DNA of 64,000 nucleotides. It comes from a virus. The notes under the pieces are model-generated. The model saw nothing but the letters and a program-made list of their open reading frames with translations, did no database searches and was not told the origin of the DNA. The translations under genes were made by a program, and so were the position numbers. Positions 19,181-50,629 of this stretch are shown one piece after another. The DNA is taken from the IMG/VR virus record IMGVR_UViG_3300044825_000904, positions 32,001 through 96,000 of that record. The stretch is one strand, 5' to 3'. Within the stretch, counting starts at the first letter, position 1; each line of letters opens with the position of its first letter.

Positions 19181-20596
19181 CTAGTTCTCGAACAAGAAGA
19201 AGTTGTTCGCACCAAGAGTACATAATGCACGCTCAGATAAGAAGTTAACTTCCATTGCATCTAAAGAACTTGTTTGAGCACCACCAGCAGAACCAGTGAT
19301 CCAAGTTTTGTAACGACGATCTTCAGTTTCAGAAGCACGGTAACGTACGTGTAAGAACGGACGCTTAGCATTCTTTCCTAAGATTTGATCGTATACGTTA
19401 GTAGAACCTGCAGGTACCAAGATACCATTGATAGCTCCACCTACGATTCCACCACGAGTAGTTGCATCGTTTAAGTATTTCCAGTCAGTCTTGTAGAAAT
19501 CGTATCCACGCTTAAAGCCTGTGAAACCTAAGTTTAACGCCATAGTCTCGCTGTTGTCGAATAAACCGTAAGAAGTACCACCTGAACCATAAGAGTTTTG
19601 TGATGCCAACATATCGTCGATATCAAAACCAAACTTACGGTTTAAGAAGATAACATTCTCTTGGATTGCTCCTTGCTTATCAAGACGTTGGATGATAGAA
19701 TCGAAGTCAGACAAAGTAGTTGGGTTACCACCTGCCCATACGTTTCCACGCTCAGCAACAGCATTGAATAAACCTTGAGTACCAGCAGCACCAGGTTGTA
19801 CTTGAGAAGAAGCTACAGTTAAGTAAGTAGCAGCAGCTGAACCAGCTTCTGCAGGAACACCTTCAACCATTGACATCTCTAAGTAATCTTCGAAACGTAA
19901 ACGAGTCTCGTGCTCAGACTTGATGTACCATAAGTAACCAGTAGCACCGTTCTCAGAAGTTACTTCAACCCATCCGATTTGAGCCATGTCAGAACCAGAA
20001 ACAGCGTACTTATCTTTGATGATAATTGGCTTGTTTTCGAAGAAGATATCTTGAGACTCTAAAGAACCGTCCATTCCTAATGAACCTTTAGTGAATTCAG
20101 AACCGTAAACGAATGCAGTAGAAGCAGTATCTACAGCGATTGATTGTCCTGAAGCAGCATAGTAAGCTACTGTGAAAGTGTTAGCAGTTGTATCTACTGC
20201 AGTGATAACCGCTTTATCAGAAGCAGAACCAGAGTTTGCAGATAAGAATACAGTTTGGTTAACACGGAAGTTAACAGTTACATCTGCATCTTCAACAGTC
20301 CACACAGCTGTATCTTGTCCTGCAGCAGCTGCTGAAGTACAGTTTACATACTTAGTGTGTAAACGACCTTGCTCTGCCCATTTGATTAAGTCAGAGTTAG
20401 AAGGTAATTCTGCACCTACCATACGTAAGAAAGATGCAATAGAACGATTACCATAACGCTCGAATTCAGCCTCGTAAGTATCAGGAAGATACTGATTTAA
20501 GAAATCGAAGTTAGTAATGTAGTTTGTAGGCAATGTTGCCTTTACCGCTGAGGGCTCTAATTGAAAGCCCGGGGTAGCTTGAACTGATCCAGCCAT
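19181..20596 (-). CDS. Major capsid protein, module A (Flavobacteria podovirus type)
   Basis: QYLPDTYEAEFERYGNRS, WAEQGRLH, GYLWYIKSEHETRLRFEDYLE; strongly biased codons; follows scaffold. Confidence 0.85.
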   Translation of the reverse strand: MAGSVQATPGFQLEPSAVKATLPTNYITNFDFLNQYLPDTYEAEFERYGNRSIASFLRMVGAELPSNSDLIKWAEQGRLHTKYVNCTSAAAAGQDTAVWTVEDADVTVNFRVNQTVFLSANSGSASDKAVITAVDTTANTFTVAYYAASGQSIAVDTASTAFVYGSEFTKGSLGMDGSLESQDIFFENKPIIIKDKYAVSGSDMAQIGWVEVTSENGATGYLWYIKSEHETRLRFEDYLEMSMVEGVPAEAGSAAATYLTVASSQVQPGAAGTQGLFNAVAERGNVWAGGNPTTLSDFDSIIQRLDKQGAIQENVIFLNRKFGFDIDDMLASQNSYGSGGTSYGLFDNSETMALNLGFTGFKRGYDFYKTDWKYLNDATTRGGIVGGAINGILVPAGSTNVYDQILGKNAKRPFLHVRYRASETEDRRYKTWITGSAGGAQTSSLDAMEVNFLSERALCTLGANNFFLFEN

Positions 20597-20615
20597 TGTT
20601 TTTGTTTTTTTGGTT

Positions 20616-21704
20616 TTAGTTTTTTAAAGATTTAATCTTAAGTCTGTTACCATGGTCACTATCCAATGCTGTTACTTTAAACCCACCTTTGTCGATATTT
20701 TGTGGAGCATTTCTAACGCTCATATCGATGTTCTTGCTTTGACGAACTGAGTCATCAATTGCATCTGCTTTGCCCATATCATAAAAGAATTTGGCCATCG
20801 CATCCGGGTTCATTGCCGCAGCAATTGTTTTGTGATACTGTTTAGCATCCTTAATGTATCCATTTTCATCAACGAAATTAGTGAAGAATTTGGAAATGTC
20901 TGTTTGTTGAGCTTTCAGCTGCTCTGGAGTTCCAGGTTTATAAGATACTTCCTTATCTCCAACTTTGAAATCAAAACCTTTGAATTCATCAGAGAATAAT
21001 TCATTTGTCTTATTCATAAAGTACTCCGACTTTTTAGCCTGCTCTTGCTGCATAGCAGTAGATTGGCTGATATATTGCTTGTAAGATTCCAAAGCCTCTT
21101 TGTCCTCAGCAGGAATAGCAGCTTCCATCCTCGACTCAAGGGGAGCTTTGTATTTTTCCTTTTGTTCTTCAAAGTACTTTGACGCCTTGCCAAGTTCTTT
21201 TTTAAGTGCTAACTTCTTGCGTTTGATTTCTTTTTCGTCATCCATCTCCTCATCGTATCCAAACTTTGATTCATATTCGAATGCGATATCCTCATCATCA
21301 AAATCAGGATTAGTCTCACGCATGTAGTCAGCTAGAAGTCTTTCTGGGTTAACCTTAGAAAAATCTTGGTTAACACGATAGAAATCTTCTAAACCACGCC
21401 CTGTGTCTTTCTTGAATTTTAAGAAAGCATTTACGTCTTCAGGAAGTAATTCCTGTTGTGGTCTCTCTGTAAATAATTCATCCAAAGAGTTTACCTCCTT
21501 GTTGAACTTTGTTTTTAAATATGAAAGAACGTCGTTGTCACCAAATTGCGGCGACTCTACTACAGGTGGCTCTTCTACATGTGTCTCCTCTACAGGAGCT
21601 ACATCTTCAGCCATCTTTTGTTCGTGCTGATCAAGCAACTGTTGCTCGATTTCTTGCACAGACTTTTCTTCAAAGTCTACAAGTTTTACTTGAATATTAT
21701 CCAT
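20616..21704 (-). CDS. Putative scaffolding protein
   Basis: Acidic coiled coil between portal and MCP. Confidence 0.65.
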   Translation of the reverse strand: MDNIQVKLVDFEEKSVQEIEQQLLDQHEQKMAEDVAPVEETHVEEPPVVESPQFGDNDVLSYLKTKFNKEVNSLDELFTERPQQELLPEDVNAFLKFKKDTGRGLEDFYRVNQDFSKVNPERLLADYMRETNPDFDDEDIAFEYESKFGYDEEMDDEKEIKRKKLALKKELGKASKYFEEQKEKYKAPLESRMEAAIPAEDKEALESYKQYISQSTAMQQEQAKKSEYFMNKTNELFSDEFKGFDFKVGDKEVSYKPGTPEQLKAQQTDISKFFTNFVDENGYIKDAKQYHKTIAAAMNPDAMAKFFYDMGKADAIDDSVRQSKNIDMSVRNAPQNIDKGGFKVTALDSDHGNRLKIKSLKN

Positions 21705-21741
21705 TTAATTAAATTTAGTTGCACAAAAGTAATAATAAAAA

Positions 21742-24174
21742 TTATCTTGGGTTGAATTGCTCTAAATCAAAGCCATCTAGAGAGTCTTCTTCTGATTCGA
21801 AGTTCATCGCTGGAAGGTCTTTTTGACGTTGTTCAATTAACTTAGATTGTTGAGTAGCTTGAAGTTTTGTGCGATCGTCTTTAGCTTTCTCCTTATCCAT
21901 ATCCAACTGCTTAACCTTCTCTACCTCCATGCCTCTTAATTGCATGTTATAGTTAAATTCAACAGCCATAAGTTGTTCTTTAATCTGAGCTTCTGCTTGC
22001 ATGCGTTGAATATCAAACTGCATCTGTGCTTGAGCAATTTGTGCTTTAGCTTGTGCTTCTGCTTGTACTTTTTGTAATGACGCTTGAGCTGCCGCTTGAG
22101 AAGATTGGATATTACCCTGAGTCTGCATTTGAATCTTAGCTTGCTCATTCTCCATATCTTTCTTACCCTTATCCTTACGCTTCATCTTAAGCAACTCGTT
22201 AGCTAACTTAAGATTCTTCATTTGACGGATATCAATAGCATCCTCAAGAGTAATTTGATCACGCTGTAATGCCATCTGAATGTTAGCCTCTAATTGAGCC
22301 TTCTCTTCTTCGTCAGGAGCAACCTCAATGAAAATACCAAAGTCGTGTAAGTACAAGTCTTTAATCTCCTCTAGAAGACCAACAGCATACTTACCGATTT
22401 GCATCGTAAACTCTTCTTTGAAATCAGAGTATTCTAAGATATCGGCAACACGAAGCGATAACGCTTCAGATAATCTACGAGTAATAAATAAACTTCCTTC
22501 TAAGATGTGGCGAGTTGCTGTGTTTGAATTTAATGCAGCAAGTTTCTGTACGCCAACTAATGCATCAGGATTAGGAGTAGAAGCATCACGAGCTTCATTC
22601 AATCCTGTTACATCACGTATCATGCTCATGTACTGATTGTATGCATTAATCAATGCAGTAATCTTACCTTGACCACTATTAGTATTAAGTTCTTGAATAG
22701 GAATACGACCATGGTTTAAATCACCATCGGTAGTCATACTACGTCCAATAACACTACCAGTTTGGAAATACAAACGAAGAGCATCTTCAGGATTGTAAGC
22801 ACCACCAGTTCCTAAGTCAACCTCATTGATACCATCAGCATCGATGAACACACCATCCGGCACAACACGTTGTAGAACTTGTTGTAATTTAAGGTGGGTC
22901 ATTTGAATTAAGTCAGCAAAAGGAATCATACGACGAGTCAATGACTCGATGATACCTTTGTACATTCTTGGTGCTACAGCGATGTAGTTTGGTAACGCAT
23001 ACTGAGAAGCAGACTTAGGGCGAACCATATTGCGAGCAAGCTCCCACTTAAGTAAATAAGGAGATCCAGGTACCATAATACCTTCGTACCATACATCAAT
23101 TCTCTTTTCAATTCTCTCGAATCTTTCTTCAGTTCCTTCAGGAGGGTTGAAATTTTCATCTTTTTGGATTACACGAACGCCATTGTTCTCAAGGTATTTC
23201 TTCTTGTAAACAAACGTCTTGTCAGTTTTATAATTAAAATATAATAACGTAACTACATCTCTGTTAAAGATGTCGCTACGATAAGGACGCATAATTCCAT
23301 AATAATTGTACCACGCTGTTCCTAATTGTTGAATCTCTGCCAACTCCTCTTTTGTAATGTCTGGCTTAATCTTAATTAGTTCAGTGATTGGTACTTGCTT
23401 TACTTCTCCCCAATAGAAACAATCGTCAAATGTTGGAGATTCAGTGTAACTATAAACAATGTTAGCGGGGTCAACATACTCAACACGAACTCCTGTTCCT
23501 GGTACAAATGAGTGCTTTACTACTCCGATACCGATTGTTGTGATGTCGTAGTCGACCCTTTTACGAACGTCTTGATAATGATTTAAATCTAAGATAGTAT
23601 TGATTGCCTCCTCTTCAGCAATCTCAATTGCAGGCTTATAATTAAGCTGCATATATAACGATAACTCTTGGTCGTTCTCTGGTAAATCTTCCTCAGGAAC
23701 ATTAAATGCATCAATACCAAACTCTTGCTTAGTTTGAACTAATAGGTCTTTAGCAATCATATCTGCCTCAACCATCTCTTGAAACTTAGAGCGTTTGTTT
23801 GATGACATAGCATCTTGTGCATATGCTTTAACCTCAAATAATCGGTCATGCATACCGTTAACAACGATGTCAACAAACTTAGGGATGATTGGTACAGGAG
23901 TCCAGTCTAGGTTAATGTGCGACATGTCGCCATCAACTTCTAATTGGCTTTTATATTTAGCTACTGGTTGTTCACCACGAGCATAAAGTCTAACTCTATG
24001 GAAATCAATCCATTGTGAATAGTATCGGCAACTGTTGCCTGTCTTTGCAAACCATTCATATGAAATGCTTTGCCCAATTCTTAAGCCATATTCCCATGAT
24101 GCCTTTTCCTGATCAGTCGCTAACTGCGAAGGGAATTGGGTATCTGGCATTAATATTCCAAGAGGTTTGTTCAT
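21742..24174 (-). CDS. Portal protein, module A
   Basis: RLYARGEQ, NLDWTPVPIIPKFVDIVVNG, IRDVTGLNEARD; Gln-rich C-terminal barrel helix. Confidence 0.85.
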   Translation of the reverse strand: MNKPLGILMPDTQFPSQLATDQEKASWEYGLRIGQSISYEWFAKTGNSCRYYSQWIDFHRVRLYARGEQPVAKYKSQLEVDGDMSHINLDWTPVPIIPKFVDIVVNGMHDRLFEVKAYAQDAMSSNKRSKFQEMVEADMIAKDLLVQTKQEFGIDAFNVPEEDLPENDQELSLYMQLNYKPAIEIAEEEAINTILDLNHYQDVRKRVDYDITTIGIGVVKHSFVPGTGVRVEYVDPANIVYSYTESPTFDDCFYWGEVKQVPITELIKIKPDITKEELAEIQQLGTAWYNYYGIMRPYRSDIFNRDVVTLLYFNYKTDKTFVYKKKYLENNGVRVIQKDENFNPPEGTEERFERIEKRIDVWYEGIMVPGSPYLLKWELARNMVRPKSASQYALPNYIAVAPRMYKGIIESLTRRMIPFADLIQMTHLKLQQVLQRVVPDGVFIDADGINEVDLGTGGAYNPEDALRLYFQTGSVIGRSMTTDGDLNHGRIPIQELNTNSGQGKITALINAYNQYMSMIRDVTGLNEARDASTPNPDALVGVQKLAALNSNTATRHILEGSLFITRRLSEALSLRVADILEYSDFKEEFTMQIGKYAVGLLEEIKDLYLHDFGIFIEVAPDEEEKAQLEANIQMALQRDQITLEDAIDIRQMKNLKLANELLKMKRKDKGKKDMENEQAKIQMQTQGNIQSSQAAAQASLQKVQAEAQAKAQIAQAQMQFDIQRMQAEAQIKEQLMAVEFNYNMQLRGMEVEKVKQLDMDKEKAKDDRTKLQATQQSKLIEQRQKDLPAMNFESEEDSLDGFDLEQFNPR

Positions 24175-26384
24175 ATCTTGTTAATTCTACTGAAGGAACC
24201 AGTGTTATCGTAAGTTGCAAATTTAATGCTTATTTTTGACTCTTTTTTCTCAGGCAAATATACGTGCTTTTGATTTGCCATAATAGCATATCCTGAACTA
24301 ATTGACGCATCAAATTTAGTTCTGTCGTTTACGTCGAATCTAGCCCAGTCCTGAAGTGTCTTATTGAACGGCATATCGCCTATTTCATCAGGCTGACGGT
24401 AGTTACCCTCCATATCTAATCCCACAAAACGCTCTATGTATGTCTCGATTGCTGTGGCGTGTGCTTGCTTAATATCTTCACTTGATGACGGTATACCACC
24501 AATCTCTCTTTCTGTGAATGACAGTTTGTGTGCGTGCTTATCAGGACGGTTCATTGAGAACCCACGGTAGCCTCTATTCTTAAAGTGATAAAGTAGACGT
24601 GCTTTGTTGTTCTCACAAAGAATAGGCATGCCATAGAATACGCAAGCCATCAGCACCTCTTCGAAGAATATCTCTGCTGTCTGTGGACGAGCAATATATT
24701 CTAAAAAGAATTGGTTGGATGGTGCACCTGTCATATTAAACTTGGTTAACCCATGGAGCGAACCGTTTGATCCACCAAAGGTCGCACCTGAGATGTCGTA
24801 GGGGTCACAGCCAAACGCACCAATATGCTCATTACCCGGATATCTATTCCCATTCTTAGTAATATAATTATTGTTGATGCCTGGTCCAGGTATCCAAGAT
24901 ACTAGGAACCGACCATTCTTATCGGGTGTCCAAACAACCTTGGTGTCCTTCTCTCCGTTAGCCCAGTGAAAATAGCCACGTGTTACGACGTGGTCTTGTA
25001 CCAAACTGTCATTGTAGTCTATCTGCTGATAGATTTTAGTCAAGTTAAACAGAGATGACTTGGTCTCATCACGGAAAGCGTGTGACTCTGTTCTAGGGAA
25101 CTGACGATAGAATTCATTCAGTGCATCAGGGTTAGCCTTTAACGATGCCACCTCATTGTTCCAATACTCAATTACGCCTTGTGTTATCCAAGTACCCTCT
25201 GCTGAACGCACAGGCTTCTCAGGACGTTCTAATACTGCGTGACCGTACTCGTCAATATATCCCTCAAAGTTATACTCCATTGGAATAAAGAGCGAATATA
25301 GACCCGATATAGTCTGACCATTCTGGTTTCTTTTCCTGACGTTCGAGTCATAATAAATACGTTTATAGTTTTCTCCACCTTTATCTAGTGCATTAGATGT
25401 TGATCCCATCATACACTTACCGATAATCCTAGCACCTAGACGAAGACAAGTTTTTCTGACACGCCAACCGTTCTCTATGTTCATAGGACGCTCTAACTTA
25501 GCGGCCTCATCTTCAACCAAATATAATAATTTTTCTCCATCATAGGAGTTGTCTGCTGTGTTACGCCAGTCAATCGTTGTATCCAATCCATCAATCTCTT
25601 CCTCGTTCTCCTCGTGCATATTCTTACGAGTAATCTTAGAAGCTGGTACACGGAATGCAAGTTCAGTCTTTGGTGTGGTCATACCATCACGCACTGGTTG
25701 AAAAAAGAATGGATAGTTATTTGCAATCGGAACTACCTTATCGGTAAACATCTTTTTAGCATCGGGACCTGTCTTAGATGTTAAACCTATACGAGCATCT
25801 TTAGCTAAAGTTGCAATGTTAACAGCTTCTGATGATGCCATAAAAGAGAAACCTGAACGACGGTTCTTAAGGTAGCACATACCAAAGCATCTACTATCAG
25901 CCTTGCATGCTTCCCAAAATATAAAGAATACTCTGTTTGATTCACGGAAGTCAGGATGACCTACGTCGGTCTTTGACCATTGCAGATACATATAATGTGC
26001 ACCTGTGATGTAAGTCTTCTCGCCATTGTTAATAAACCAATAGCCAAGCTCACGTCTGTCAAACTCTTTTTCGATGTAGTCTACCCATTGAGACTTAAAT
26101 GAATTGTCACGACGGTTCCAATCAAAGATGGTCTTGATACGAGATAATTCTTTTGGGAGCTCGGTGGCTTTCCACTTGTTGCCATCGTAGTCAACCTTAT
26201 CAGGAGCTAGTGGCAGAGCAACTCTTAGACCGCTGATATTGTACACCTCTCCAATCGTGCCATCTTTTGACACTACCACAAAGTCATACTCAGGATCCCA
26301 TCCATACTCCCAATCTTTCTTTGCATTTCTTTTTGCAAGGATTTTTTCAGGAACATTAGAATCTTCAATGTAGAATAAACTCAT
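24171..26384 (-). CDS. Terminase large subunit, module A
   Basis: LKNRRSGFS Walker A variant, LVEDEAAK Walker B, FGCDPYD nuclease motif, TKFDASISSG. Confidence 0.88.
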   Translation of the reverse strand: MSLFYIEDSNVPEKILAKRNAKKDWEYGWDPEYDFVVVSKDGTIGEVYNISGLRVALPLAPDKVDYDGNKWKATELPKELSRIKTIFDWNRRDNSFKSQWVDYIEKEFDRRELGYWFINNGEKTYITGAHYMYLQWSKTDVGHPDFRESNRVFFIFWEACKADSRCFGMCYLKNRRSGFSFMASSEAVNIATLAKDARIGLTSKTGPDAKKMFTDKVVPIANNYPFFFQPVRDGMTTPKTELAFRVPASKITRKNMHEENEEEIDGLDTTIDWRNTADNSYDGEKLLYLVEDEAAKLERPMNIENGWRVRKTCLRLGARIIGKCMMGSTSNALDKGGENYKRIYYDSNVRKRNQNGQTISGLYSLFIPMEYNFEGYIDEYGHAVLERPEKPVRSAEGTWITQGVIEYWNNEVASLKANPDALNEFYRQFPRTESHAFRDETKSSLFNLTKIYQQIDYNDSLVQDHVVTRGYFHWANGEKDTKVVWTPDKNGRFLVSWIPGPGINNNYITKNGNRYPGNEHIGAFGCDPYDISGATFGGSNGSLHGLTKFNMTGAPSNQFFLEYIARPQTAEIFFEEVLMACVFYGMPILCENNKARLLYHFKNRGYRGFSMNRPDKHAHKLSFTEREIGGIPSSSEDIKQAHATAIETYIERFVGLDMEGNYRQPDEIGDMPFNKTLQDWARFDVNDRTKFDASISSGYAIMANQKHVYLPEKKESKISIKFATYDNTGSFSRINKI

Positions 26385-26842
26385 ATCTTTTTTAAGAATG
26401 CAACCTGTATAATTCTAGAATATTCTCCTTGCCCATAGTTATCAAAAATATTTCTTGAGTGAAGAATTGTAGAATCAAATATAAATAGTCTATTAAACTT
26501 TGCGTTGGTAATTAGTATCTTATTATAAGATTCGTCATACAATGTAGTGCCGTCATCTTTAGGTGGATTCTTTGTTAGATATAATATGGCAGTCAAATCT
26601 CCCATCATCTCATCCGTATGAATGAAGTTTGGCTCTATTTGGCCATAAGGAGATAGACGAATAAAGTTATGAGCAATCTCATAATCAGGATACATATTAA
26701 GTAGCAATTGAGCTACCTCATCCCCATCCCTAGGTTGTATGCCTTTGAAGACTTTATGTCCATCGGGCACATCATAGAATTGACCACTTAAAACATTCTT
26801 TAAGTGATGGTCAGGATTCGGTAAAAAATTATCTACTACCAT
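26381..26842 (-). CDS. 2OG-Fe(II) oxygenase (DUF6445-like)
   Basis: VVDNFL start, HxD (IHTD), GTTLY, FNRLFIFD...H...R. Confidence 0.75.
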   Translation of the reverse strand: MVVDNFLPNPDHHLKNVLSGQFYDVPDGHKVFKGIQPRDGDEVAQLLLNMYPDYEIAHNFIRLSPYGQIEPNFIHTDEMMGDLTAILYLTKNPPKDDGTTLYDESYNKILITNAKFNRLFIFDSTILHSRNIFDNYGQGEYSRIIQVAFLKKI

Positions 26843-27123
26843 TATTTACCTTTTGCTCTTTGTTCTGCAAACCCACGGTTAGTAGGTGCAGAGTTTCCAA
26901 CTACTCCCTCAATAATATTATTCTCCTCCTCGACTCTTTTAAGAATCTCAAAAGCATCCATGATGGCTAACTTCTTTGCTGCGGCTGCGTTCTTTAATTT
27001 GTCTGCAGACAAGTCATCATCCATGTGGGTAACAATCTTCTCCTCAGCAACTTTAATCAACTCTTCAACGGCTTTATATCCAGAGTCAATGATGCGTTTC
27101 TTTAACTCAGTTATTTTGTTCAT
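26842..27123 (-). CDS. Putative terminase small subunit
   Basis: Small helical protein (LKNAAAAKKLAIMDAFEIL...GFAE) upstream of TerL. Confidence 0.45.
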   Translation of the reverse strand: MNKITELKKRIIDSGYKAVEELIKVAEEKIVTHMDDDLSADKLKNAAAAKKLAIMDAFEILKRVEEENNIIEGVVGNSAPTNRGFAEQRAKGK

Positions 27124-27670
27124 CTAATTTAATTGTTAAATTCTTAGTATACATACGATACACTTTCTCACCATCAATATAGAATGGATACTCGCTCTCA
27201 GGCTCAAACGTGACCGTGTCACCCTCTTTTAATCCTAGTGCTAGTACTTCTTCGTTTGGATACTTTATCGTGCCTACAAGAGGCTTCTCTGCGTCCGCAG
27301 TAAGTATGCCTGTGCTATAGTTCTCTACCGGAGAGATGAACACGTAGCGACCAATACCAATCCAATCGGACCCTGGCTTCTTGTATGCATACGGATCATC
27401 AATAAAGTACAAGTCATCTCGGAAGTAATTCCAAGCAGACTTCTCTCTACCACGCATATCGTAATACAACCTAAAAGTATTGTGATGCACAATGACCGTG
27501 TCGCCTGGTTCAACAGGACCCTCGTATCCAATAGGCGTAGAGATAACAACAGCCTCACGCATAGTGGCAAGGTGGTCTTCTTTCGATGTAGAAATAATAA
27601 GCTCTCCCCTCGTGTTGTCATATCTCTTGCCATCACGGGGTTGCACTATAAAGTAAAATGGGGACTTCAT
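27107..27670 (-). CDS. Tandem GroES-like co-chaperonin
   Basis: Two GroES-like units: VEPGDTVIVHHN and STGIL...GLKEGDTVTF...IDGEKVYRM. Confidence 0.7.
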   Translation of the reverse strand: MKSPFYFIVQPRDGKRYDNTRGELIISTSKEDHLATMREAVVISTPIGYEGPVEPGDTVIVHHNTFRLYYDMRGREKSAWNYFRDDLYFIDDPYAYKKPGSDWIGIGRYVFISPVENYSTGILTADAEKPLVGTIKYPNEEVLALGLKEGDTVTFEPESEYPFYIDGEKVYRMYTKNLTIKLDEQNN

Positions 27671-27671
27671 A

Positions 27672-28131: not shown

Positions 28132-28180
28132 TGTATTATATTTTTTTGTAAAAGTACTAATTATATTTTAATTTTAGCAT

Positions 28181-42071: not shown

Positions 42072-42099
42072 TGTGTGTGTGTTTTGTGTGTATTTAACC

Positions 42100-42128
42100 A
42101 AAAAGGGTAGAGATTATATCCCTACCCC
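42100..42128 (-). terminator. Terminator after tail tube gene
   Basis: GGGTAG...CTACCC plus T-tract on minus strand. Confidence 0.55.
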
Positions 42129-42153
42129 AAATGTAAACAAAAATTTTTAAATA

Positions 42154-42564: not shown

Positions 42565-42571
42565 TTTATTT

Positions 42572-43015
42572 CTAATTTAATTGTTCTAATAATTGACTAA
42601 ATGTTACGATAATTTCTACTTGCCATCCTGTTGGCAATTGTGAAGTTAATGTATTTGTTTGATATTCACAATTCAAAACCTGCCAATTAGTTAGGTGTGA
42701 ACTAATACCAAAATTGCTTGGTCCTAAAAGGACTTTATTTGCAATTTGATTAACAATATCATTAGCTACTTTTTTGCCTCCTGTATCAGAAACAAACTTA
42801 GTAATGACGTGAATATCAATAATCTCATCACGAATAAATCTATCTTTATTGCCATCATTTCTACCTGTCTGTTGCATAAATACAATAGCAGGGTATGCTG
42901 CCGTACTAGGAACTATTTCATCGAAAACTTCAACAGGCTGACCATTGCTAGTAATATTGGTCAAAGTCTCAAAATAAGCCTTTCTTAAATCAAATTGTGG
43001 GTCTTTTGCTACCAT
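42572..43015 (-). CDS. Tail terminator (DUF3168-like)
   Basis: VFDEIVP...YPAI; synteny. Confidence 0.65.
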   Translation of the reverse strand: MVAKDPQFDLRKAYFETLTNITSNGQPVEVFDEIVPSTAAYPAIVFMQQTGRNDGNKDRFIRDEIIDIHVITKFVSDTGGKKVANDIVNQIANKVLLGPSNFGISSHLTNWQVLNCEYQTNTLTSQLPTGWQVEIIVTFSQLLEQLN

Positions 43016-43019
43016 CTTA

Positions 43020-43460
43020 TTAAGTTTTCATAATGTTTTTAAATCTAGTCCTAGCTTTTCTAGTAATTCTTCTGGTAGTAATCACATAATGATGAAATAA
43101 GAACTTTCTAGCCCTTAAACCTTTATGATTCTGATTAGCTCCTTTAAAGCCAGCAATATAATCTTGGTATGGAGATAAAGTTCCTGTTAAATTAAATTTC
43201 TTACCTGTACCAAAATCCTGATAAGGGGCATAATGAGCTCTAAATCCAATTGTAGCAGTTACTTTATTTCTACCTTCTTGTTTTTTAAAATAATGACTAT
43301 TTCTAAGTTTTCCAGTCTTTACAGGTGCTAATGATTTAGATTGACTTGAAAGTGCTTCAGCTTCTTGCATAACCATTTCTGTTATGTCTTTGGCTCTATT
43401 TTGTGCACGTTCAAATCTATTAATTAAAATCTTTAAGCCCTCAAACTTAACTTTAATCAT
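43020..43460 (-). CDS. HK97 gp10-like tail completion protein
   Basis: APVKTGKLRNS, YAPYQDFGTG, ARKFL. Confidence 0.8.
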   Translation of the reverse strand: MIKVKFEGLKILINRFERAQNRAKDITEMVMQEAEALSSQSKSLAPVKTGKLRNSHYFKKQEGRNKVTATIGFRAHYAPYQDFGTGKKFNLTGTLSPYQDYIAGFKGANQNHKGLRARKFLFHHYVITTRRITRKARTRFKNIMKT

Positions 43461-43803
43461 TTCTTACAGTTGCTTTAAAAGTTATCCACTTATTCTTAAA
43501 ATCAACATTAGTGATATCAGAAAGTGCATATCTTTTATTCTTAAAAACCATTACAGTAGTGGTTTTAAATTCATATTGACTATTGTATCTGACCATACAT
43601 TCAAATGATTGATCAGTACCAATTTGACCACCTTCTTCATTTCTGACACCACCATAGTTGCCATAAAATGAACTTGTAGACTTAATATGCACATTACAGC
43701 TATACCCTTGACGAGAAGCTGCAGTAACACCTCCAGCACCATCTGGTATTTGTTCTACCATGGTTTGAAAGTTAGCCGTAAATCTGCTAAGTTTATTATA
43801 CAT
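43453..43803 (-). CDS. Head closure/head-tail adaptor
   Basis: DGAGG, VRY, FKNKRYAL; synteny. Confidence 0.65.
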   Translation of the reverse strand: MYNKLSRFTANFQTMVEQIPDGAGGVTAASRQGYSCNVHIKSTSSFYGNYGGVRNEEGGQIGTDQSFECMVRYNSQYEFKTTTVMVFKNKRYALSDITNVDFKNKWITFKATVRND

Positions 43804-44332
43804 AGATAGGTCTGTAATGTCTAATACGTTCTTTAATAGCTCTAATTGCCAATTTCTTGTCTTCTACCGCCTGATCATAATCAACTGCTATAATATCTAA
43901 TACAGCATTTTGAATATCAAAAGGCAATGGAAGATACCCTCCAATGTAAGTAACTACCATACCACCTGAAGAATAAGCAGAAATCTTTTGGTTTAATTCA
44001 CTAACAGTGTGAGACAAATCAACTCCAGCAGCATCTTTTACAGACTCAATATCAGTCACTGGGCCATAATACAAATCAATTGTACCATTTACCTCAATGT
44101 AAGACTGAATCATACGCTTTGGCTTTAGATTCTTTTGGATATATGTCTCAACCTCGTGAATAGCAGAATACCTTAAATCACTAAGCTTTTGATTATCGTC
44201 ATTATTAGAAATTTCAATATTCAAGTGTCGCTTAACTTGGTCTAAAGTTACTACTTCAGCTAAAGGGGTGATTTCCTCAACCATTTTAATTTCTAAACCC
44301 CTTGTTTTAACTACTTCAGGTATGTAAGCCAT
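43796..44332 (-). CDS. Head-tail connector (gp6-like)
   Basis: VTLDQVKRHLNI...DNQKL...VETYI, GYLPLPFDIQNAVL. Confidence 0.8.
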   Translation of the reverse strand: MAYIPEVVKTRGLEIKMVEEITPLAEVVTLDQVKRHLNIEISNNDDNQKLSDLRYSAIHEVETYIQKNLKPKRMIQSYIEVNGTIDLYYGPVTDIESVKDAAGVDLSHTVSELNQKISAYSSGGMVVTYIGGYLPLPFDIQNAVLDIIAVDYDQAVEDKKLAIRAIKERIRHYRPIYV

Positions 44333-44535
44333 TATTTCTTCTTAGAAGGTTTTACAACTTTATTTTGAGGAGGATTAACTGGATCAGTTTCTTCTTCCAT
44401 TTCTACAACAATTACTAAACCTTTCGATTCTAGCATTTTTGCTCTGTCATTACTTGTTTTGAATGAATCACCTACCATACGAGGATGATTAGCTTCCATA
44501 TCGAAAAAGTGTTGTTCACAAGTTACCTTTGCCAT
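44332..44535 (-). CDS. Small protein downstream of MCP
   Basis: GDSF...RAKMLESKGLV. Confidence 0.55.
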   Translation of the reverse strand: MAKVTCEQHFFDMEANHPRMVGDSFKTSNDRAKMLESKGLVIVVEMEEETDPVNPPQNKVVKPSKKK

Positions 44536-44560
44536 TTTATTTAAGTTTAAGGTTTAAAAA

Positions 44561-44592
44561 TAAGCCTACTGTTCTTATGGGAAGTAGGCTTA
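44561..44592 (-). terminator. Terminator after siphovirus MCP
   Basis: TAAGCCTACT...AGTAGGCTTA inverted repeat. Confidence 0.7.
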
Positions 44593-44620
44593 CATAATAA
44601 CACTAAAATAAGAAAGGTGA

Positions 44621-45805
44621 TTATGCTACCACAAAAGTACCTTTTGTCATTGCACTACCGAAGTAGATTGGCAAAGCAATAGATTCTTCTGCTCTCACAG
44701 TAACCAAGTTCTTAGTAAAGTTGTCCCCATCTTCGTAAGCGAATTCAACCATTACGTTGTCTTCGAATAACAATTCAGCAGCCTTATTCATATCTGCTAC
44801 GAAGAAAGTGTTAACAGGGATGATATCAGTTGAAATAACTGGCACACCAGCAATTGTTAAACCAGTTCCAGATAATAAAGATGGGTGAGAATAACCAGCA
44901 CCTGATTCTTTATTAATCAACAACTCCATCTCATCAATTGGGTTTACCAAGATGATAGAAGGACGGAAACGAGCAGCTTTTTTCTGAGCAATAGCGTTAG
45001 CTAATTTATCCCAACGGTTTGAACCTGCAACTACTGATCCAGATGGAGAGTAAGCTGAAGCAGCTTCGTATAAACCTGTGAATTCACCAGTTCCTGCATA
45101 ATCAAATAACTTAGTATCTTCTTGCTCTAACAAATCATTAACCATTTGTGTAGAAACGAAGTTTTGTAACCAAGATAAACGAGATAACATCTGCTTAGAG
45201 ATTTTGCTGTATGCAGCAATAGTCTTAGGAGTTACCTCAGTGATTGTGAAGTCATAATCAACTTGAGCCTTAGAAGCACCTTCAGTTTGAACTGCTGGAG
45301 CACCTTCGCCACCTGATTTCTTAGCGAATTTAAATACACCATTCTGCTCAATTACAGAAGAACGCATCAAATCACGCAAGTGAACTGAACGGAAAGGATC
45401 AGTTAAGATTACGTTAGATAAACCAGCAATCTTAGAAGCCCAATCAGAACCGATGTTAGCAGTTAAGTTCATATCACCTACTGCTTTCAATTCCATTGCA
45501 ACTGAAGAACGAGAAGTAGTCATAGACTTGAATTCTTGCTCACGAGCTTCGAATTTTTTCGCTAAGAAATCTTCTTTCTTAGTTGGCTCTACAGACTTAG
45601 CTTTCAAATCTAAGATAGCATCAGATACAGATTTTGATAAACCTTCCACCTTACCTTCTACCTCTTGTAATTTAACACCTGCATTTTTAGTTTGCTCGAT
45701 CAAATCAGATAAGCCTAAGCCTTCCATTTCACGACCAACACCTTTTTGAATCATTTCGTTGATGTCGCTTTTTACTTCATCAACAATTTTTTTAATATCT
45801 TCCAT
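44621..45805 (-). CDS. HK97-family major capsid protein, module B
   Basis: N-terminal delta domain, EGASKAQ, KTIAAYSKISKQML, FTKNLVTVRAEE. Confidence 0.92.
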   Translation of the reverse strand: MEDIKKIVDEVKSDINEMIQKGVGREMEGLGLSDLIEQTKNAGVKLQEVEGKVEGLSKSVSDAILDLKAKSVEPTKKEDFLAKKFEAREQEFKSMTTSRSSVAMELKAVGDMNLTANIGSDWASKIAGLSNVILTDPFRSVHLRDLMRSSVIEQNGVFKFAKKSGGEGAPAVQTEGASKAQVDYDFTITEVTPKTIAAYSKISKQMLSRLSWLQNFVSTQMVNDLLEQEDTKLFDYAGTGEFTGLYEAASAYSPSGSVVAGSNRWDKLANAIAQKKAARFRPSIILVNPIDEMELLINKESGAGYSHPSLLSGTGLTIAGVPVISTDIIPVNTFFVADMNKAAELLFEDNVMVEFAYEDGDNFTKNLVTVRAEESIALPIYFGSAMTKGTFVVA

Positions 45806-46536
45806 TACTTAAAAGAGTTTTTTAATTGTTTTAAAAATTCGATTTGCACTTGTCTTTGTAATTCTTCTGGATTAATCATCTCAGGAGTGGACTTAACCGA
45901 CTCCTTGTCATTAATTAGTTTGAACAACTCCGATTTTATAAAGTTATACTCAATTTCAATCAATTCATAAGTTTCGTCCTTTAAATTTCCACTACGCAAT
46001 TGCTTGTATAGTTTATCAAAACGATCTTGCAATCCTTTAGCATCCATAGATTTTAAACCTACAAATGGTGTTTCAGGATTAGCTCCCCATAGAACTGACG
46101 AAAATTCGTACAATTTTACTTCTTGAATCTGATAATACGGCTTTTGATTTGTATTAGCATCTGGTTCTACTCTTGTTTCCTTAATTGTAGAGAATCCAAT
46201 TGAATGCTGGTTAATTAAACCATTGTCATACAACTTAAGGATATCCTCGCCAATCTCAGTGTCAATAATAGCAGCCTCAAAATATAAACCATAATTATCT
46301 TCTTTCAATACTGATGGCTTACCAAGTGGGCTATCTGAGCTATGATTGTGTAAAAACCATATTTCATTCTTTCCCCCTGGACCACGTTCTTGAATAGTCT
46401 TGGTAAATGCACCTGGCATAATCATATCGCCATGCAAGTCAATATTACCAAACTTAGCAGCATAACCCATTACAGTCCGTTTTGCAACATCGACTTCAGT
46501 TATCTCCCCTTCAGATTTTATCTTATAATCTCTCAT
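45805..46536 (-). CDS. HK97 prohead protease
   Basis: GYAAKFGNIDLHGD...GAFTKTI, LHNH, SIGF, LYEFSSVLWGANP. Confidence 0.93.
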   Translation of the reverse strand: MRDYKIKSEGEITEVDVAKRTVMGYAAKFGNIDLHGDMIMPGAFTKTIQERGPGGKNEIWFLHNHSSDSPLGKPSVLKEDNYGLYFEAAIIDTEIGEDILKLYDNGLINQHSIGFSTIKETRVEPDANTNQKPYYQIQEVKLYEFSSVLWGANPETPFVGLKSMDAKGLQDRFDKLYKQLRSGNLKDETYELIEIEYNFIKSELFKLINDKESVKSTPEMINPEELQRQVQIEFLKQLKNSFK

Positions 46537-46587
46537 ATTTTCTATCTATTGCTTGCAAATATAATAAAAATAACTAAATACAAAATT

Positions 46588-47328
46588 TTAAATATATCTA
46601 ACCCCACATCTGCAATTAACAATCTCGCTTGCAGGGGCAGAACCATCTCCAGGATAGGCCATTGGATAGCCTCCTACAATAAACTTTTCATTTAAAGCAA
46701 TTGCAGGATATCCATCCATATCGTGATGAGATTTACGTTCTTTGCCATCCAAAATAACCATCCATTTCTTCTTGGTAATCTTAGGCTGTAAAGAAGCCCA
46801 TAAATCGCTTGCTAGATTCATTATTTTAGTCACTTCAGTCCTAGCTATCGTCTGACTACGAATTATGTTCTTCTGGGCCAAATAAACGCTTAATAGGGTA
46901 ATGATAGCGGAGGCAGGGATGCCTTGTTTTAGTTTATCGTCTACAAACTTTTGTATATCGTACTTAATTGTGGCAATAATGCCTAGTACAACTATAAATT
47001 GAGTGATATCTCTAAAACGCAATAACAAAAGTAGTAACCATGCCTCATTAAAGTTGTCTTCTTCTTCTTCCTCTTTCTTCTTGTATCTATTGAGAAACTC
47101 GGATTGTTTAAGGCCAAACTTTTGATAAGCATCTTTTAAGATGTCCATCATCCATTTTTCGCTAAAATGGTTAGTAATATGAAATGTATTGGGGTTTCTG
47201 CCTTCTAGTGTAGCTAGGTATGCCCTAGTTTCTGCACCAAGCTTAGTTCTAACAAAAGCAAATAAGGCACGTTCATTGATGTCGTGCCTTCTTCGCCAAG
47301 CAACTTTATACATTTCGTCACTTACCAT
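46588..47328 (-). CDS. Mu gpF/SPP1 gp7-like minor head protein
   Basis: IARTEV, KKW...R.SH, YPGD...EIVNCRC. Confidence 0.85.
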   Translation of the reverse strand: MVSDEMYKVAWRRRHDINERALFAFVRTKLGAETRAYLATLEGRNPNTFHITNHFSEKWMMDILKDAYQKFGLKQSEFLNRYKKKEEEEEDNFNEAWLLLLLLRFRDITQFIVVLGIIATIKYDIQKFVDDKLKQGIPASAIITLLSVYLAQKNIIRSQTIARTEVTKIMNLASDLWASLQPKITKKKWMVILDGKERKSHHDMDGYPAIALNEKFIVGGYPMAYPGDGSAPASEIVNCRCGVRYI

Positions 47329-47462
47329 TTTTTATCCTTAAAAAGTTTTTCTACCTTCTTCTTTTCCGCTTTCTTAATAAAACCTTCATACCATAGGAAA
47401 AACCCAAACCAAAATGAACTGGTTAATGAAACGGAAATTACTATGATATGAAAGTTTTCCAT
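47322..47462 (-). CDS. 46-aa single-TM peptide (not in ORF track)
   Basis: MENFHIIVISVSLTSSFWFGFFLWYEGFIKKAEKKKVEKLFKDKKW; fills the gap between portal and gpF genes. Confidence 0.5.
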   Translation of the reverse strand: MENFHIIVISVSLTSSFWFGFFLWYEGFIKKAEKKKVEKLFKDKKW

Positions 47463-47464
47463 AA

Positions 47465-48823
47465 TTACTCATTCATAGACCCTAATGTCGTAGGATCAAT
47501 GTTTAAACTGCTTACAGGCACTTGATTTGAACGGATGTATACTTGTTGCATCGAAGGATCATAAGTAGGCTCAAAATCCATAAACACACGCTTCTCATCT
47601 TGAGAAAGCACACCATCCAACTTATCAATAATGTTAGCAGCATCTAAGAAGTTCTGCTTCATTTCTGGATAAGCATCTGTATCAAAGCGTAAAACGTATT
47701 GAGATGGGTTAATTCCCATTGAAGGAGCTAAAAACTCCAACAATCCTTCGCAAATACGAGATTGCATAGGAATAACACAGTTAATAATCATTCTACGAAT
47801 AAATTCAGCCAAGTTACTCTCTGTTAAGTTATCAGCATTCAATAAAACGTATGGGTAATGCCATAATCTACAAAGTTGCTCCGTAGATAACTTACTCATA
47901 GCTCTTAAATCCAAGTCAATGTTAGTTGTTGATAACTTTGTGTAACCAACTTTAGCATTAGACCATTGAACACGACCTTTAGAAGCAGAATTGTAGATTT
48001 TATCATACATTCTATCTTCAAAAGCACCTTGTTGTTCTGGATCAAGGTCATCTACGTTTAAATCATCCTTATAAACAAAACCTACAGCTCCACGAGTCTC
48101 AAAGTTTTCAATACCCACTTCTTCTGCAGCATTAGCCTTTTGTAACACACGAGAACCAGCAGTCAATGGAGAGAATCCACGAGCAATAGTCTTTTGGTCA
48201 TTAAAGCTAGGGTTAAATGATCTAAACGATAAGAACCATTCTGGTGCTACATCTTGGTTTAAAGATGTAATGTTGTAACCAGTTATAACCCTAAAGCCAT
48301 CAGTGTAGATTTGGTAATCCCAAGGTGCAATAACGTGTAGTCTAGCAATCTTACCAGGTTTCAATGGGTCTTCTTCTGCCCAAATACCTACATCCTTTAA
48401 TAAAAGGTCATAAGAGAACAAAGTATCGAAGAATTGCTTCTGAGTTTGATAACCATTAGGTTTTTTAAGCAAATCAAGGATTGGATTAGCTTCAATCTCT
48501 TTTAAAGATGCTTTACGAATCTGACTTGCCTCCACTAAACTTCTTTGAGTAGGTCTTGTATTTAAAGCCTTGTATTTAGCTAATTGTTTAGTTTGAGTCT
48601 TGTTATTAGCCTGGTACATTTCTAAAGGTACTTCAACTGCTCTTGATGCTATATCAGCCACAATTGAATACACATCCACGTTCATCTCATAGCCCTTTTC
48701 TATAGCTTCACGATAATCAGTCTTATACATAGAATAAGCCTGGCCACCAATAACTTTCCAAGGAATTGAGTTTTTAACCATAGTCATGGCTTTTTTGCCA
48801 CTAAAAAAATCGAATAAGCCCAT
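47465..48823 (-). CDS. HK97-family portal protein
   Basis: GYEMNVDVYSIV, LLKKPNGYQT, RGFSPL, LSQDEKR. Confidence 0.9.
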   Translation of the reverse strand: MGLFDFFSGKKAMTMVKNSIPWKVIGGQAYSMYKTDYREAIEKGYEMNVDVYSIVADIASRAVEVPLEMYQANNKTQTKQLAKYKALNTRPTQRSLVEASQIRKASLKEIEANPILDLLKKPNGYQTQKQFFDTLFSYDLLLKDVGIWAEEDPLKPGKIARLHVIAPWDYQIYTDGFRVITGYNITSLNQDVAPEWFLSFRSFNPSFNDQKTIARGFSPLTAGSRVLQKANAAEEVGIENFETRGAVGFVYKDDLNVDDLDPEQQGAFEDRMYDKIYNSASKGRVQWSNAKVGYTKLSTTNIDLDLRAMSKLSTEQLCRLWHYPYVLLNADNLTESNLAEFIRRMIINCVIPMQSRICEGLLEFLAPSMGINPSQYVLRFDTDAYPEMKQNFLDAANIIDKLDGVLSQDEKRVFMDFEPTYDPSMQQVYIRSNQVPVSSLNIDPTTLGSMNE

Positions 48824-48825
48824 TT

Positions 48826-50208
48826 TTAGAATATTAAGAGTTTTTTCTTTGAATACTTGGTATATACCCCATATCTAATAGCATCTAAAGCGTGATTGAA
48901 GTCATCAATTGGTTTATTAATCGGTTTACCACCCACTGTTATCCATTGATAGTTATCAATCTCCTTTTTGATGTTCTTTGATCTCCGAGTATAATATACC
49001 TCGTATTCACGCAACTTACTTATTCCAGCATTAACAGAGTCATTTCCTTTAACCGCTTTCACGACCTTAATCCCTGCTCTCTTTAATTCCTCAATACTTT
49101 TAGGATCAGCACTATCAGCATAAATCTCATTCAATTTATCTGGATACATCTTAATCTTCTTAATTAAATCGGAATTCGTTAATCCCTTCTCATAAATTAC
49201 CTCGTCAAGGTATAACTTATTTCCGAGTTTTGCAATTCTAATCAGTGAAGTAGGGTCATTAGAGAATCCAAAGTCAAGTCCGCTAAAGATAACATCAGCA
49301 TCCTTAGGAAACAGCTCACAAGGCTGCCAATCGTGATAAATTAAGCTTTCTGAACTCGGTTTAGGTGATTGTTGATATAAAGATTCGAAAGTAAATGGCT
49401 CATTCTTCTTAACTCTTAATAATTTCTCCAAGGAATGCTTCTCAGGCCATAAAGCTTCACCAAACTCCCTTTCATCATAATCATTCTCGGCTTTCTCTCG
49501 AATAGCAGGAAATTCAATGATTGTCCAATCGTTATCCCTTTCAAGTAACCTACCAGCTAAATCATCATCATACCACCGAGTTTGGATAAGAACTTGTGCA
49601 CTATCGTTATGCAAACGAGTTTCCCACACATCGGTATACCAGTTCCATAATTGCTCTTTAATGATAATACTTTGAGCTTCTTGTCTATCCTTTAGCGGAT
49701 CATCAATGATTCCAATATCAACAGCAGTACCTGTAAGTGAGCCTCCACGACCTACAGCCCTTAAATAACCCCTTCTGCCAACAGTTTGAAAGAATTCAGC
49801 AGTCTTAACTGCCTCACCCTTCTTCTCCCCTATCCTACTATCTGGATATAACATCTTAAACTCCTCACTAAGCATCCTACGCTGTATCTCCGTAGAAAAT
49901 TGTTCAGCTAATGTAGCATTATAAGAAGCCAAGGCTAATTTCAAATCGGGGTTTCTACCAAGCAAGTAAGCAGGGAAGCTACGAGTAGATAATTCAGACT
50001 TTCCGTGTTGCGGAGGCACAAATATCATCAACTTCTTAATCTTACCTGCATATACCAAGTCCAAGTGATCAGCAATCACCTTGTGAAACCACCTCATATC
50101 ATAATCAGGCTTGATATAAGAAACAAAACTACTAAACGACCTCCTCGAAAGTTCCCTCGTCAATATTTCTCTCTCTAATTTCGCTAAGTCGTTGTCTAAT
50201 TTGGTCAT
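48826..50208 (-). CDS. Terminase large subunit, module B
   Basis: PPQHGKS Walker A, IIDD Walker B, QTRW, GLDFGFSNDP, DSADP, NHALDAIRY. Confidence 0.93.
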   Translation of the reverse strand: MTKLDNDLAKLEREILTRELSRRSFSSFVSYIKPDYDMRWFHKVIADHLDLVYAGKIKKLMIFVPPQHGKSELSTRSFPAYLLGRNPDLKLALASYNATLAEQFSTEIQRRMLSEEFKMLYPDSRIGEKKGEAVKTAEFFQTVGRRGYLRAVGRGGSLTGTAVDIGIIDDPLKDRQEAQSIIIKEQLWNWYTDVWETRLHNDSAQVLIQTRWYDDDLAGRLLERDNDWTIIEFPAIREKAENDYDEREFGEALWPEKHSLEKLLRVKKNEPFTFESLYQQSPKPSSESLIYHDWQPCELFPKDADVIFSGLDFGFSNDPTSLIRIAKLGNKLYLDEVIYEKGLTNSDLIKKIKMYPDKLNEIYADSADPKSIEELKRAGIKVVKAVKGNDSVNAGISKLREYEVYYTRRSKNIKKEIDNYQWITVGGKPINKPIDDFNHALDAIRYGVYTKYSKKKLLIF

Positions 50209-50629
50209 CACTTAATAATTTAGGATTAACAGTATCATTATGAATACTCAAGTCTTGCTCAATACGTTGTGTGCTCTTACCATGCTCAAACTCCAACATA
50301 AAAGCAGTATTCTTTAACTCACCATTGTTTATGTCACCCAAGATAGATGAAGCCATTACAGCCATAAACCCAGGAGTATTACTATCAGCAACTAAACGCT
50401 TTAAATCAGCAACACTCAAGCTACTAATGTAAGTCATCACCTTAACCACCTCAGGTTTACTCATCCTTAAACGATATTGCTCGTCTAAGTTCTTCATTAC
50501 CTCCTTAATTACACTCTTTGGCCTACCATAAGGATTCCTAACCTCTCCAGGCTTAATGGAGTATTGTCTAATGTTTTCGTAATTACCCCTAGGCTTCGTT
50601 TCAACTAAAGGTTGTTCTTCAGCTTCCAT
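50132..50629 (-). CDS. Terminase small subunit
   Basis: KPGEVRNPYGRPK motif; overlaps TerL. Confidence 0.7.
   Translation of the reverse strand: MEAEEQPLVETKPRGNYENIRQYSIKPGEVRNPYGRPKSVIKEVMKNLDEQYRLRMSKPEVVKVMTYISSLSVADLKRLVADSNTPGFMAVMASSILGDINNGELKNTAFMLEFEHGKSTQRIEQDLSIHNDTVNPKLLSDDQIRQRLSEIRERNIDEGTFEEVV

Follow-up and report, generated by a model that had tools for sequence, protein, structure and literature searches.

A 104-kb metagenomic viral contig with two virion modules as a probable figure-eight misassembly of a podovirus and a siphovirus that share a tail-fibre module

The 64,000-nt stretch of DNA analysed here (the window; positions 32,001 to 96,000 of the record) sits within one 104,271-bp IMG/VR contig, IMGVR_UViG_3300044825_000904, which consists of phage genes throughout, with bacterial flanks and host genes absent. 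It carries a podovirus and a siphovirus virion module, linked by one long fibre gene (Table 1). The original prediction had described two complete, unrelated virion modules in this contig, which proved correct: every gene it named was found in place, both modules run on the minus strand, and the single ORF said to bridge them is indeed open over its whole length. Two of its details stood in part. The podovirus structural genes are present, but their labels as nozzle and ejection genes derive from PHROGs described as 'virion structural protein'; and the modules are joined without integrase or att site as claimed, but do not abut directly, since a plus-strand glycosyltransferase gene and two small ORFs separate the fibre from the podovirus packaging genes.

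Table 1. Features of the window (window coordinates; X1, probable source run; X4, run from another study)
Feature	Position	Strand	Basis or remark
Podovirus virion and packaging module	2696..27968	-	PHROG matches; gene-by-gene colinearity with MW202828.1
Large structural protein	2696-9043	-	podovirus module
Large structural protein	12616-16734	-	podovirus module
Major capsid-type structural protein	19181-20596	-	phrog_13704, E 1e-104
Portal, 810 aa	21742-24174	-	phrog_6547, E 1e-142
TerL, 737 aa	24171-26384	-	phrog_6681, E 4e-171
GroES-like protein, 187 aa	27107-27670	-	podovirus module
ORF, 98 aa	27672-27968	-	podovirus module
Glycosyltransferase fusion gene, GT1-like and GT9-like domains	28181-30208	+	Pfam PF00534, PF13692, PF01075
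Small ORFs of 111 and 144 aa, downstream of the podovirus fibre	30475-31274	-	colinear with podovirus relatives
Open fibre ORF, 1,715 aa	31276-36423	-	bridges both modules
Fibre C-terminal third, podovirus's own	31276..32805	-	18-19x in X1, the podovirus level
Seam: fibre sequence common to both phages, collapsed in the assembly graph	32806..33473	-	exact 127-nt copy and summed depth
Fibre N-terminal two thirds, siphovirus's own	33474..36423	-	41x in X1, 29x in X4; 86-92% identical to G001 fibre
Siphovirus virion module	36426..50629	-	PHROG matches; 92.5% nt identity over 16.5 kb to G001
Distal tail proteins	36426-37019 and 37092-39170	-	siphovirus module
Tape measure	39170-41386	-	siphovirus module
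Tube	42154-42564	-	siphovirus module
MCP	44621-45805	-	phrog_10
Protease	45805-46536	-	siphovirus module
Portal	47465-48823	-	siphovirus module
TerL	48826-50211	-	phrog_38, E 6e-73
Small terminase candidate	50132-50629	-	siphovirus module
Head-morphogenesis protein and connectors	within 36426-50629	-	siphovirus module
Siphovirus early and replication region (RusA-like, exonuclease, DnaB-like helicase)	50630..64000	.	PHROG matches, colinear with G001
tRNA-Met	55049-55123		in the early and replication region
Siphovirus envelope/lysis block	starts within 50630-64000, continues to contig end	-	PHROG matches

The left part of the contig, from position 1 to about 65.4 kb in coordinates of the whole contig (hereafter genome coordinates), is a podovirus of about 65-68 kb, phage P, with a predicted circle of at least 65.4 kb. 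A search with its TerL matched 87 phage records (68 from Flavobacterium, 15 from Cellulophaga and 2 from Tenacibaculum). Homologous TerL, portal and capsid genes in conserved order, the genome size and a phage GroEL at genome 10085-11644 (phrog_5725, E 5e-125) assign phage P, by sequence comparison, to the GroEL-encoding phi38:1/elemo-like group of Flavobacteriia phages; GroEL in phi38:1-group genomes has been described (PMC5332604). The left half resembles the phi38:1-like and vB_FspP_elemo-like podoviruses and MW202828.1 (Podoviridae sp. ctfjg026) in TerL identity (44-66%), colinear gene order, GroEL and GroES genes and size (about 60-68 kb). It differs in its glycosyltransferase fusion, a different fibre and protein identities that do not exceed 66% to any of the GenBank phage records searched, and is a new member of the group. 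MW202828.1, a circular genome of 60,850 bp, is 66% identical in TerL and 65% in both portal and capsid protein; its colinearity with the present contig, like that of six IMG/VR contigs of 56-68 kb, is confined to genome 1 to about 63.5 kb. One continuous fibre ORF (1,332-1,727 aa) joins the homologues of genome 63.3-63.5 kb and 150-2729 in five of the six IMG/VR loci, the sixth ending before the fibre, and none of the best 80 relatives of the podovirus capsid protein lies on a contig longer than 64.4 kb.

Close homologues of the glycosyltransferase fusion (85-92%) occupy the same position in podovirus contigs of 56-68 kb, and the gene belongs to phage P. The two small ORFs next to it are paralogous (about 71% nt identity by self-BLAST) to a pair that lies at the contig's 3' end, downstream of the siphovirus fibre. 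A 2,115-aa protein gave no PHROG match and only sub-threshold Pfam matches. This protein, the lengths of the TerL and portal and the 104-kb contig had raised the candidate of a crAss-like phage (Crassvirales), which was ruled out, the TerL matches all being in 60-73-kb Flavobacteriia podoviruses; the Crassvirales-like size was set aside because two genomes together make up the 104 kb.

The right part, genome about 64.9-104.3 kb, is a siphovirus of about 39.3 kb, phage S. Its relative IMGVR_UViG_3300046096_000241 (G001; 39,434 bp, CheckV 100%) is about 92% identical at the nucleotide level, is fully colinear with it and only with genome 65.7-104.3 kb, and has its circle closure at genome 86337/86354; in this relative the circle closes through the 3' end of the 104-kb contig. 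The size of G001 matches the 39,339-bp circle that we computed for the siphovirus with the join swapped, which has an open fibre of 1,714 aa. The G001 fibre runs from an N-terminus into a homologue of the contig's 3' end; it differs from that of phage S in a distal part of about 2.5 kb, which is unrelated and is precisely the part common to phage S and the co-occurring podovirus. None of the 56 relatives of the siphovirus MCP lies on a contig longer than 39.4 kb, and the Flavobacterium siphoviruses vB_FspS_tant8-1 (40.5 kb) and phage 1/32 (42 kb) are more distant relatives.

A TerL, portal, capsid protein, fibre, endolysin, exonuclease and replicative helicase of its own are present in each half, and each half matches complete independent genomes devoid of the other side, namely G001 for the siphovirus and MW202828.1 with the 56-68-kb IMG/VR contigs for the podovirus. 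Composition separates the halves weakly (GC 37.3% in the podovirus half and 34.0% in the siphovirus half; 20 of 25 windows of 4 kb placed in the correct half by tetranucleotides) and, being a weak discriminator, was not relied on. An envelope gene cassette is also common to the podovirus and siphovirus lineages.

The seam lies inside the bridging fibre ORF. The two ends of the 104,271-bp contig, inspected for terminal repeats and circularity, have no match to each other; the 3' end is homologous to one part of the internal fibre and the start to another, and a second fibre gene is split across the two ends. The last 127 nt of the contig are identical to window 32806-32932 (genome 64806-64932), so that its terminus overlaps the internal seam site by exactly 127 nt, and the Logan contigs of both X1 and X4 break at 32806-32835. 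A length of 127 is the largest k of SPAdes-type assemblers, and an assembler of this type was presumably used. The fibre genes of the two phages share a distal part of about 2.3 kb that is 81-96% identical, in which an identical core spans no fewer than 127 nt and probably some 670 nt. On the podovirus side of this core, 31276-32805 shares just 81-92% identity with the second fibre C-terminus, located at the contig end (self-BLAST), and the last ~270 nt of the ORF (31276-31549) are 85-88% identical to podovirus relatives. A search for the donor lineage of the shared distal part found the segment 31550-33700 in none of the relatives examined from either lineage. The 104-kb contig lacks a short piece of the podovirus fibre.

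The two sides also differ in abundance, as measured by Logan contig-level k-mer depths (k=31), which are not read pile-ups and whose contigs cannot phase a 670-nt repeat. The long podovirus-side contigs in X1 have depths of 15.3, 16.1, 18.1 and 18.6x and the siphovirus-side contigs 41.3 and 45.7x, a 2.7-fold step at the seam (about 16x against about 43x), and a shared 416-nt piece, 33058-33473, reaches 59.8x, roughly what 16-19x and 41x add up to. Of the two contigs that correspond to the ends of the assembly, the one at the 3' end has 39.4x and the one at the start 20.2x. The first 117 nt of the assembly differ at four positions from window 33357-33473, where the depth of 59.8x would suggest an exact match; the podovirus version of the core, or a strain variant of that version, is therefore defined only in part. 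The step is larger in X4, where the siphovirus is present at 29x with no mismatches (100% identity), its 18-kb contig ending at 32806, and the podovirus appears only as fragments of 3.5-6.8x; the podovirus:siphovirus ratio is about 0.37 in X1 and 0.16 in X4. Two further runs hold related strains (90-99% identity) rather than the same phages, and their ratios, about 10:1 in X5 and 1:1 in X7 (relatives of both phages at about 300-400x), are secondary evidence only; cover is missing over 31.7-34.3 kb in both, including the fibre seam region in X7, which shows only that the fibres differ there.

We conclude, at a probability of about 0.93, that two independent phages co-occurring in one freshwater sample were misassembled into the 104,271-bp contig as a figure-eight. 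An assembly chimera through shared fibre sequence was the explanation favoured in the original prediction, which had proposed the assembly graph, a coverage step and differential coverage as checks; it is now strongly supported by the branch in the graph, the depth step, the differential abundance and the independent relatives of each half, all of them observed here. In the proposed mechanism, the two circles would touch at the identical fibre core in the de Bruijn graph, and the assembler would have passed round circle P, across the core into circle S and round S, stopping when it met the core again. Such a walk would explain why the 3' end repeats window 32806-32932 and why the second fibre gene lies in two pieces at the contig ends, and would make the bridging ORF a chimera of a siphovirus N-terminal part, the shared core and a podovirus C-terminal part. 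The formation of chimeric metagenomic contigs through repeats between genomes during de Bruijn graph assembly has been reviewed (PMC7299287), and the present contig is like such chimeras in the unequal abundance of the partners, their shared k-mers and the crossing at a shared stretch. It differs in that the partners are unrelated phage morphotypes sharing only a fibre module, not related strains or species, which is why the product resembles a phage with two virion modules.

The same layout is the expected product of a single homologous crossover between two circles, and a real cointegrate has to be weighed against misassembly. Co-infecting P and S might have recombined in the shared fibre core to give a 104-kb molecule at up to the abundance of the podovirus, perhaps an intracellular intermediate, beside an excess of free siphovirus. 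The fibre ORFs at both junctions are open, the repeat flanks the insert, and recombination is plausible, given a probable common host and up to about 670 nt of identical core. The excess of siphovirus depth is not in itself contrary, since depth alone also fits a ~16x cointegrate with ~27x free siphovirus, and the similar depths of both relatives in X7 are also compatible with a linked pair. However, the depth ratio varies between samples, the join is absent from all relatives examined, and a chimera accounts for the graph and depth data without an extra entity. Tailed phages package their DNA into capsids of limited size; as the relatives' genomes are 56-68 kb for the podovirus and 35-39 kb for the siphovirus, a molecule of 104 kb should be too large for either capsid and unable to spread as a particle. 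A cointegrate, which if true would be a physical podovirus-siphovirus hybrid caught in nature, therefore appears very unlikely, and the suggestion of a real recombinant encoding two particle types gained no positive support; the sample presumably contained no cointegrate molecule.

That the record is one real phage of 104 kb, with two particle types or a resident helper or satellite module, is hardly credible: the modules are co-oriented and intact and CheckV scores the record as 100% complete, but the source run has its depth step exactly at the seam and another study a larger one, lysis and replication functions are duplicated, and each half corresponds to a complete independent genome. Equally improbable is a temperate siphovirus integrated site-specifically into the podovirus genome, or a pair of tandem prophages in a host chromosome, for although one phage genome does lie inside a gene of the other, the whole 104-kb contig encodes no resolvase and no tyrosine (PF00589) or serine (PF00239) recombinase, for which control genomes were positive, the junctions carry no att-like short repeats, their sole flanking repeats being homologous fibre coding sequence, and the single viral contig has no bacterial flanks.

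The claimed phage with two particle types consequently does not stand. The record is a clean, documented case in which a public catalogue lists as a 'complete' viral genome a chimera of two viral species; because such a record can distort genome-size statistics, species-level clustering and host prediction, it should be split at window 32806-33473.

With misassembly as the preferred reading, what the two phages really have in common is the fibre. Tail-fibre modules pass horizontally between unrelated tailed phages, as in the classic fibre mosaicism of P2, Mu, lambda and the T-even phages. The present pair follows the same pattern, in that the N-terminal anchor and the extreme C-terminus adhere to the lineage of each phage and the distal receptor-binding part is common across morphotypes, and departs from it in that both partners were caught in one sample with an identical core. 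Our literature search returned only general papers and no description of the present podovirus-siphovirus pair. Since the partners occur in the same sample with an identical core, a very recent exchange of the fibre module by these unrelated, co-occurring phages is much more probable than the cointegrate, and the shared receptor-binding module suggests that the two phages probably compete for the same Flavobacteriia-type host. The finding is modest but real: the identical fibre segment and the shared envelope cassette show that genes move actively between unrelated phages, which probably have a host in common.

The ORF listing and PHROG scans bear out the original prediction: the window, bases 32001-96000 of one 104,271-bp virus record, carries two unrelated virion modules, each complete and each encoded on the minus strand. 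Genome 1-32 kb, left of the window, codes for an M15-type endolysin, endonuclease VII, GroEL, a Sak-like annealing protein, an exonuclease, a primase/helicase, a helicase and a ribonucleotide reductase, and the DNA right of the window encodes another endolysin together with several exported proteins in one block; taking both flanks and the window together, neither half lacks genes of its own for packaging, capsid, fibre, lysis, recombination or replication. No tyrosine or serine recombinase was found in the whole contig, control genomes being positive. The siphovirus early region contains a tRNA-Met (CAT) gene (window 55049-55123). A 153-aa ORF (window 26381-26842) between the podovirus TerL and the upstream gene, with weak PHROG matches to endonuclease V and 'minor coat', is without counterpart in MW202828.1 (Podoviridae sp. 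ctfjg026) and precisely missing from the related podovirus of the public run X5, where 6 other letters separate 26384 from 26852; it therefore looks like an optional inserted gene.

Virion-module genes of the window and the features separating the two sets
Set	Feature	Window position	Strand	Match
Podovirus	TerL	24171-26384	-	phrog_6681, E 4e-171
Podovirus	Portal	21742-24174	-	phrog_6547
Podovirus	Capsid-type protein	19181-20596	-	phrog_13704
Podovirus	'Virion structural proteins' (several), extending to a 2,115-aa protein	2696-9043	-	
Separating	Glycosyltransferase gene	28181-30208	+	
Separating	Two small ORFs			
Separating	Fibre ORF, open, 1,715 aa	31276-36423		
Siphovirus	Small terminase (candidate)	50132-50629	-	
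Siphovirus	TerL	48826-50211	-	
Siphovirus	Portal	47465-48823	-	
Siphovirus	Protease	45805-46536	-	
Siphovirus	MCP	44621-45805	-	
Siphovirus	Connectors		-	
Siphovirus	Tube	42154-42564	-	
Siphovirus	Tape measure	39170-41386	-	

We consider it very probable (roughly 93%) that this contig represents two co-occurring phages merged by the assembler and not one genome; metagenome assembly is known to be prone to chimeric contigs where genomes have k-mers in common (PMC7299287). The podovirus part is phi38:1/elemo-like and GroEL-encoding (compare PMC5332604), and its TerL relatives are Flavobacterium, Cellulophaga and Tenacibaculum podoviruses of ~60-73 kb. MW202828.1 (circular, 60,850 bp) is gene-by-gene colinear with genome 3-60 kb, and its fibre gene is flanked by a homologue of the endolysin at the contig start and by homologues of window 27107-27968 and TerL. 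In IMG/VR, six contigs with lengths of 56-68 kb are 85-92% identical to the podovirus part, and all match genome 49.7-62.5 kb or further; the locus of one (L160) stops there, before the fibre, and in the other five the match continues via one unbroken fibre ORF (1,332-1,727 aa) as far as genome 150-2729 and includes no siphovirus DNA. IMG/VR contains 56 relatives of the siphovirus MCP, and the longest contig carrying one is 39,434 bp. The siphovirus relative IMGVR_UViG_3300046096_000241 (39,434 bp, CheckV 100%) aligns colinearly, at ~92% identity, with genome 65.7-104.3 kb and no other part, and its two termini adjoin each other at genome 86337/86354, indicating a closed, permuted genome; its fibre consists of the N-terminal part, ~2.5 kb of unrelated distal fibre and then a homologue of our contig's 3' end (genome 102905 downwards). 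Joining the contig end to genome 64933 computationally closes a circle of 39,339 bp in which the fibre stays open over 1,714 aa.

Self-comparison located the branch. Genome 102661-104271, the contig 3' end, is 81-92% identical to window 31319-32932, and its first 142 bases show 96% identity to window 33357-33498; a second fibre gene is therefore divided between the two contig ends, with 896 aa open at the start and 550 aa at the end. The final 127 bases recur exactly at window 32806-32932. The largest k-mer of SPAdes-type assemblers is 127, and a terminus repeating an internal site by exactly k is the mark of a graph branch; the overlap points to such an assembler behind the record. The graph has the shape of a figure of eight whose two loops touch in the fibre. 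In the window's fibre ORF the last 270 nt are of podovirus lineage, whereas the fibre C-terminus at the contig's end is of siphovirus lineage by comparison with the 39,434-bp relative, so the ORF is itself chimeric. The record lacks a short piece of the podovirus fibre. The siphovirus part of the ORF has tandem-like internal repeats of ~400 nt (window 34396-34792 and 34825-35221, 76% identical), and the N-terminal part of the podovirus fibre (genome 1475-2126) likewise has internal repeats, with collagen-like PHROG matches. A weak, sub-threshold Pfam match to Peptidase_S74 (intramolecular chaperone of endosialidase) at the extreme C-terminus (residues 1630-1678, window 31276-31530) would agree with this end being conserved within each lineage.

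Twenty public runs contain part of window 28001-38000, all as k=31 contigs, and depth was compared in four of them aligned on window 23001-43000. In X1, the probable source, podovirus contigs lie at 15.3x (48,040 nt), 16.1x (8,119 nt), 18.1x and 18.6x, siphovirus contigs at 41.3x (5,816 nt) and 45.7x (31,325 nt), and the shared piece (window 33058-33473) at 59.8x, about the sum of the two. Two more X1 contigs, imperfectly aligned, have loose ends matching genome 102990 and genome 290 exactly; the one with the assembly's 3' end is at siphovirus level (39.4x) and the one with its start at podovirus level (20.2x). The first 117 nt of the contig differ from window 33357-33473 at four positions, at odds with the exact sharing that the 59.8x piece suggests there; strain variation, or bubbles popped in the Logan contigs, may account for this. 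X4, from another study (sediment), has podovirus fragments of 383-793 nt at 3.5-6.8x, no listed shared piece, and siphovirus at 29x without mismatch, an 18,144-nt contig of which stops exactly at window 32806. Strains 90-99% identical occur in X5 (podovirus ~80-160x, siphovirus 5-10x, shared piece not resolved) and X7 (podovirus ~370x, siphovirus ~250-440x, fibre seam not covered). There is therefore a coverage step at the seam, with the repeat at summed depth and a podovirus:siphovirus ratio that shifts between samples; these outcomes of the coverage checks proposed with the original prediction speak against a real hybrid. A cointegrate present at up to 16x beside an excess of free siphovirus, with a core of ~670 nt to be spanned, is highly improbable: the join is seen in no relative, the abundance ratio differs from sample to sample, and, given how tailed phages package DNA, a 104-kb molecule should be too large for a capsid built for either ~65 kb or ~39 kb. 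The predicted assembly chimera through shared fibre repeats is supported by the graph branch, the coverage step and the independent relatives of each half: two phages, at ~16x and ~43x, co-occur in one sample and have a distal fibre segment in common, through which the assembler very probably ran round both circles and output a single contig.

Homologues (70-78% nt) of the siphovirus exported/envelope-protein block (window 62599-64000 and beyond, genome 94.7-98.6 kb) lie directly after the fibre gene in several of the 56-68-kb podovirus relatives (L185:18657-21996, L150:18562-22009, L148:16590-20176), so this cassette moves between both lineages. Related exonucleases encoded by the two phages (genome 20172-20906 and window 58598-59338) both match phrog_412 and are 45-47% identical to one and the same MW202828.1 protein, and the early regions have in common a 90-nt stretch, 81% identical (genome 19953-20041 and window 56061-56149); judged by sequence, these are probably further common gene stock. 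IMG/VR samples 3300046787, 3300032213 and 3300043392 hold relatives of both phages on separate contigs (for example 3300046787_000276 and 3300046787_000077), and the two lineages therefore often co-occur. Tail-fibre mosaicism is well known, and the same kind is caught here between two co-occurring phages: the fibre core of the podovirus and the unrelated siphovirus is identical, its flanks are 81-96% identical, and the N-terminal anchors and extreme C-termini are lineage-specific. The common core suggests that the two phages have a host in common and exchanged this segment very recently, and this fibre sharing between an unrelated podovirus and siphovirus is the real, mildly interesting residue of the merged contig.
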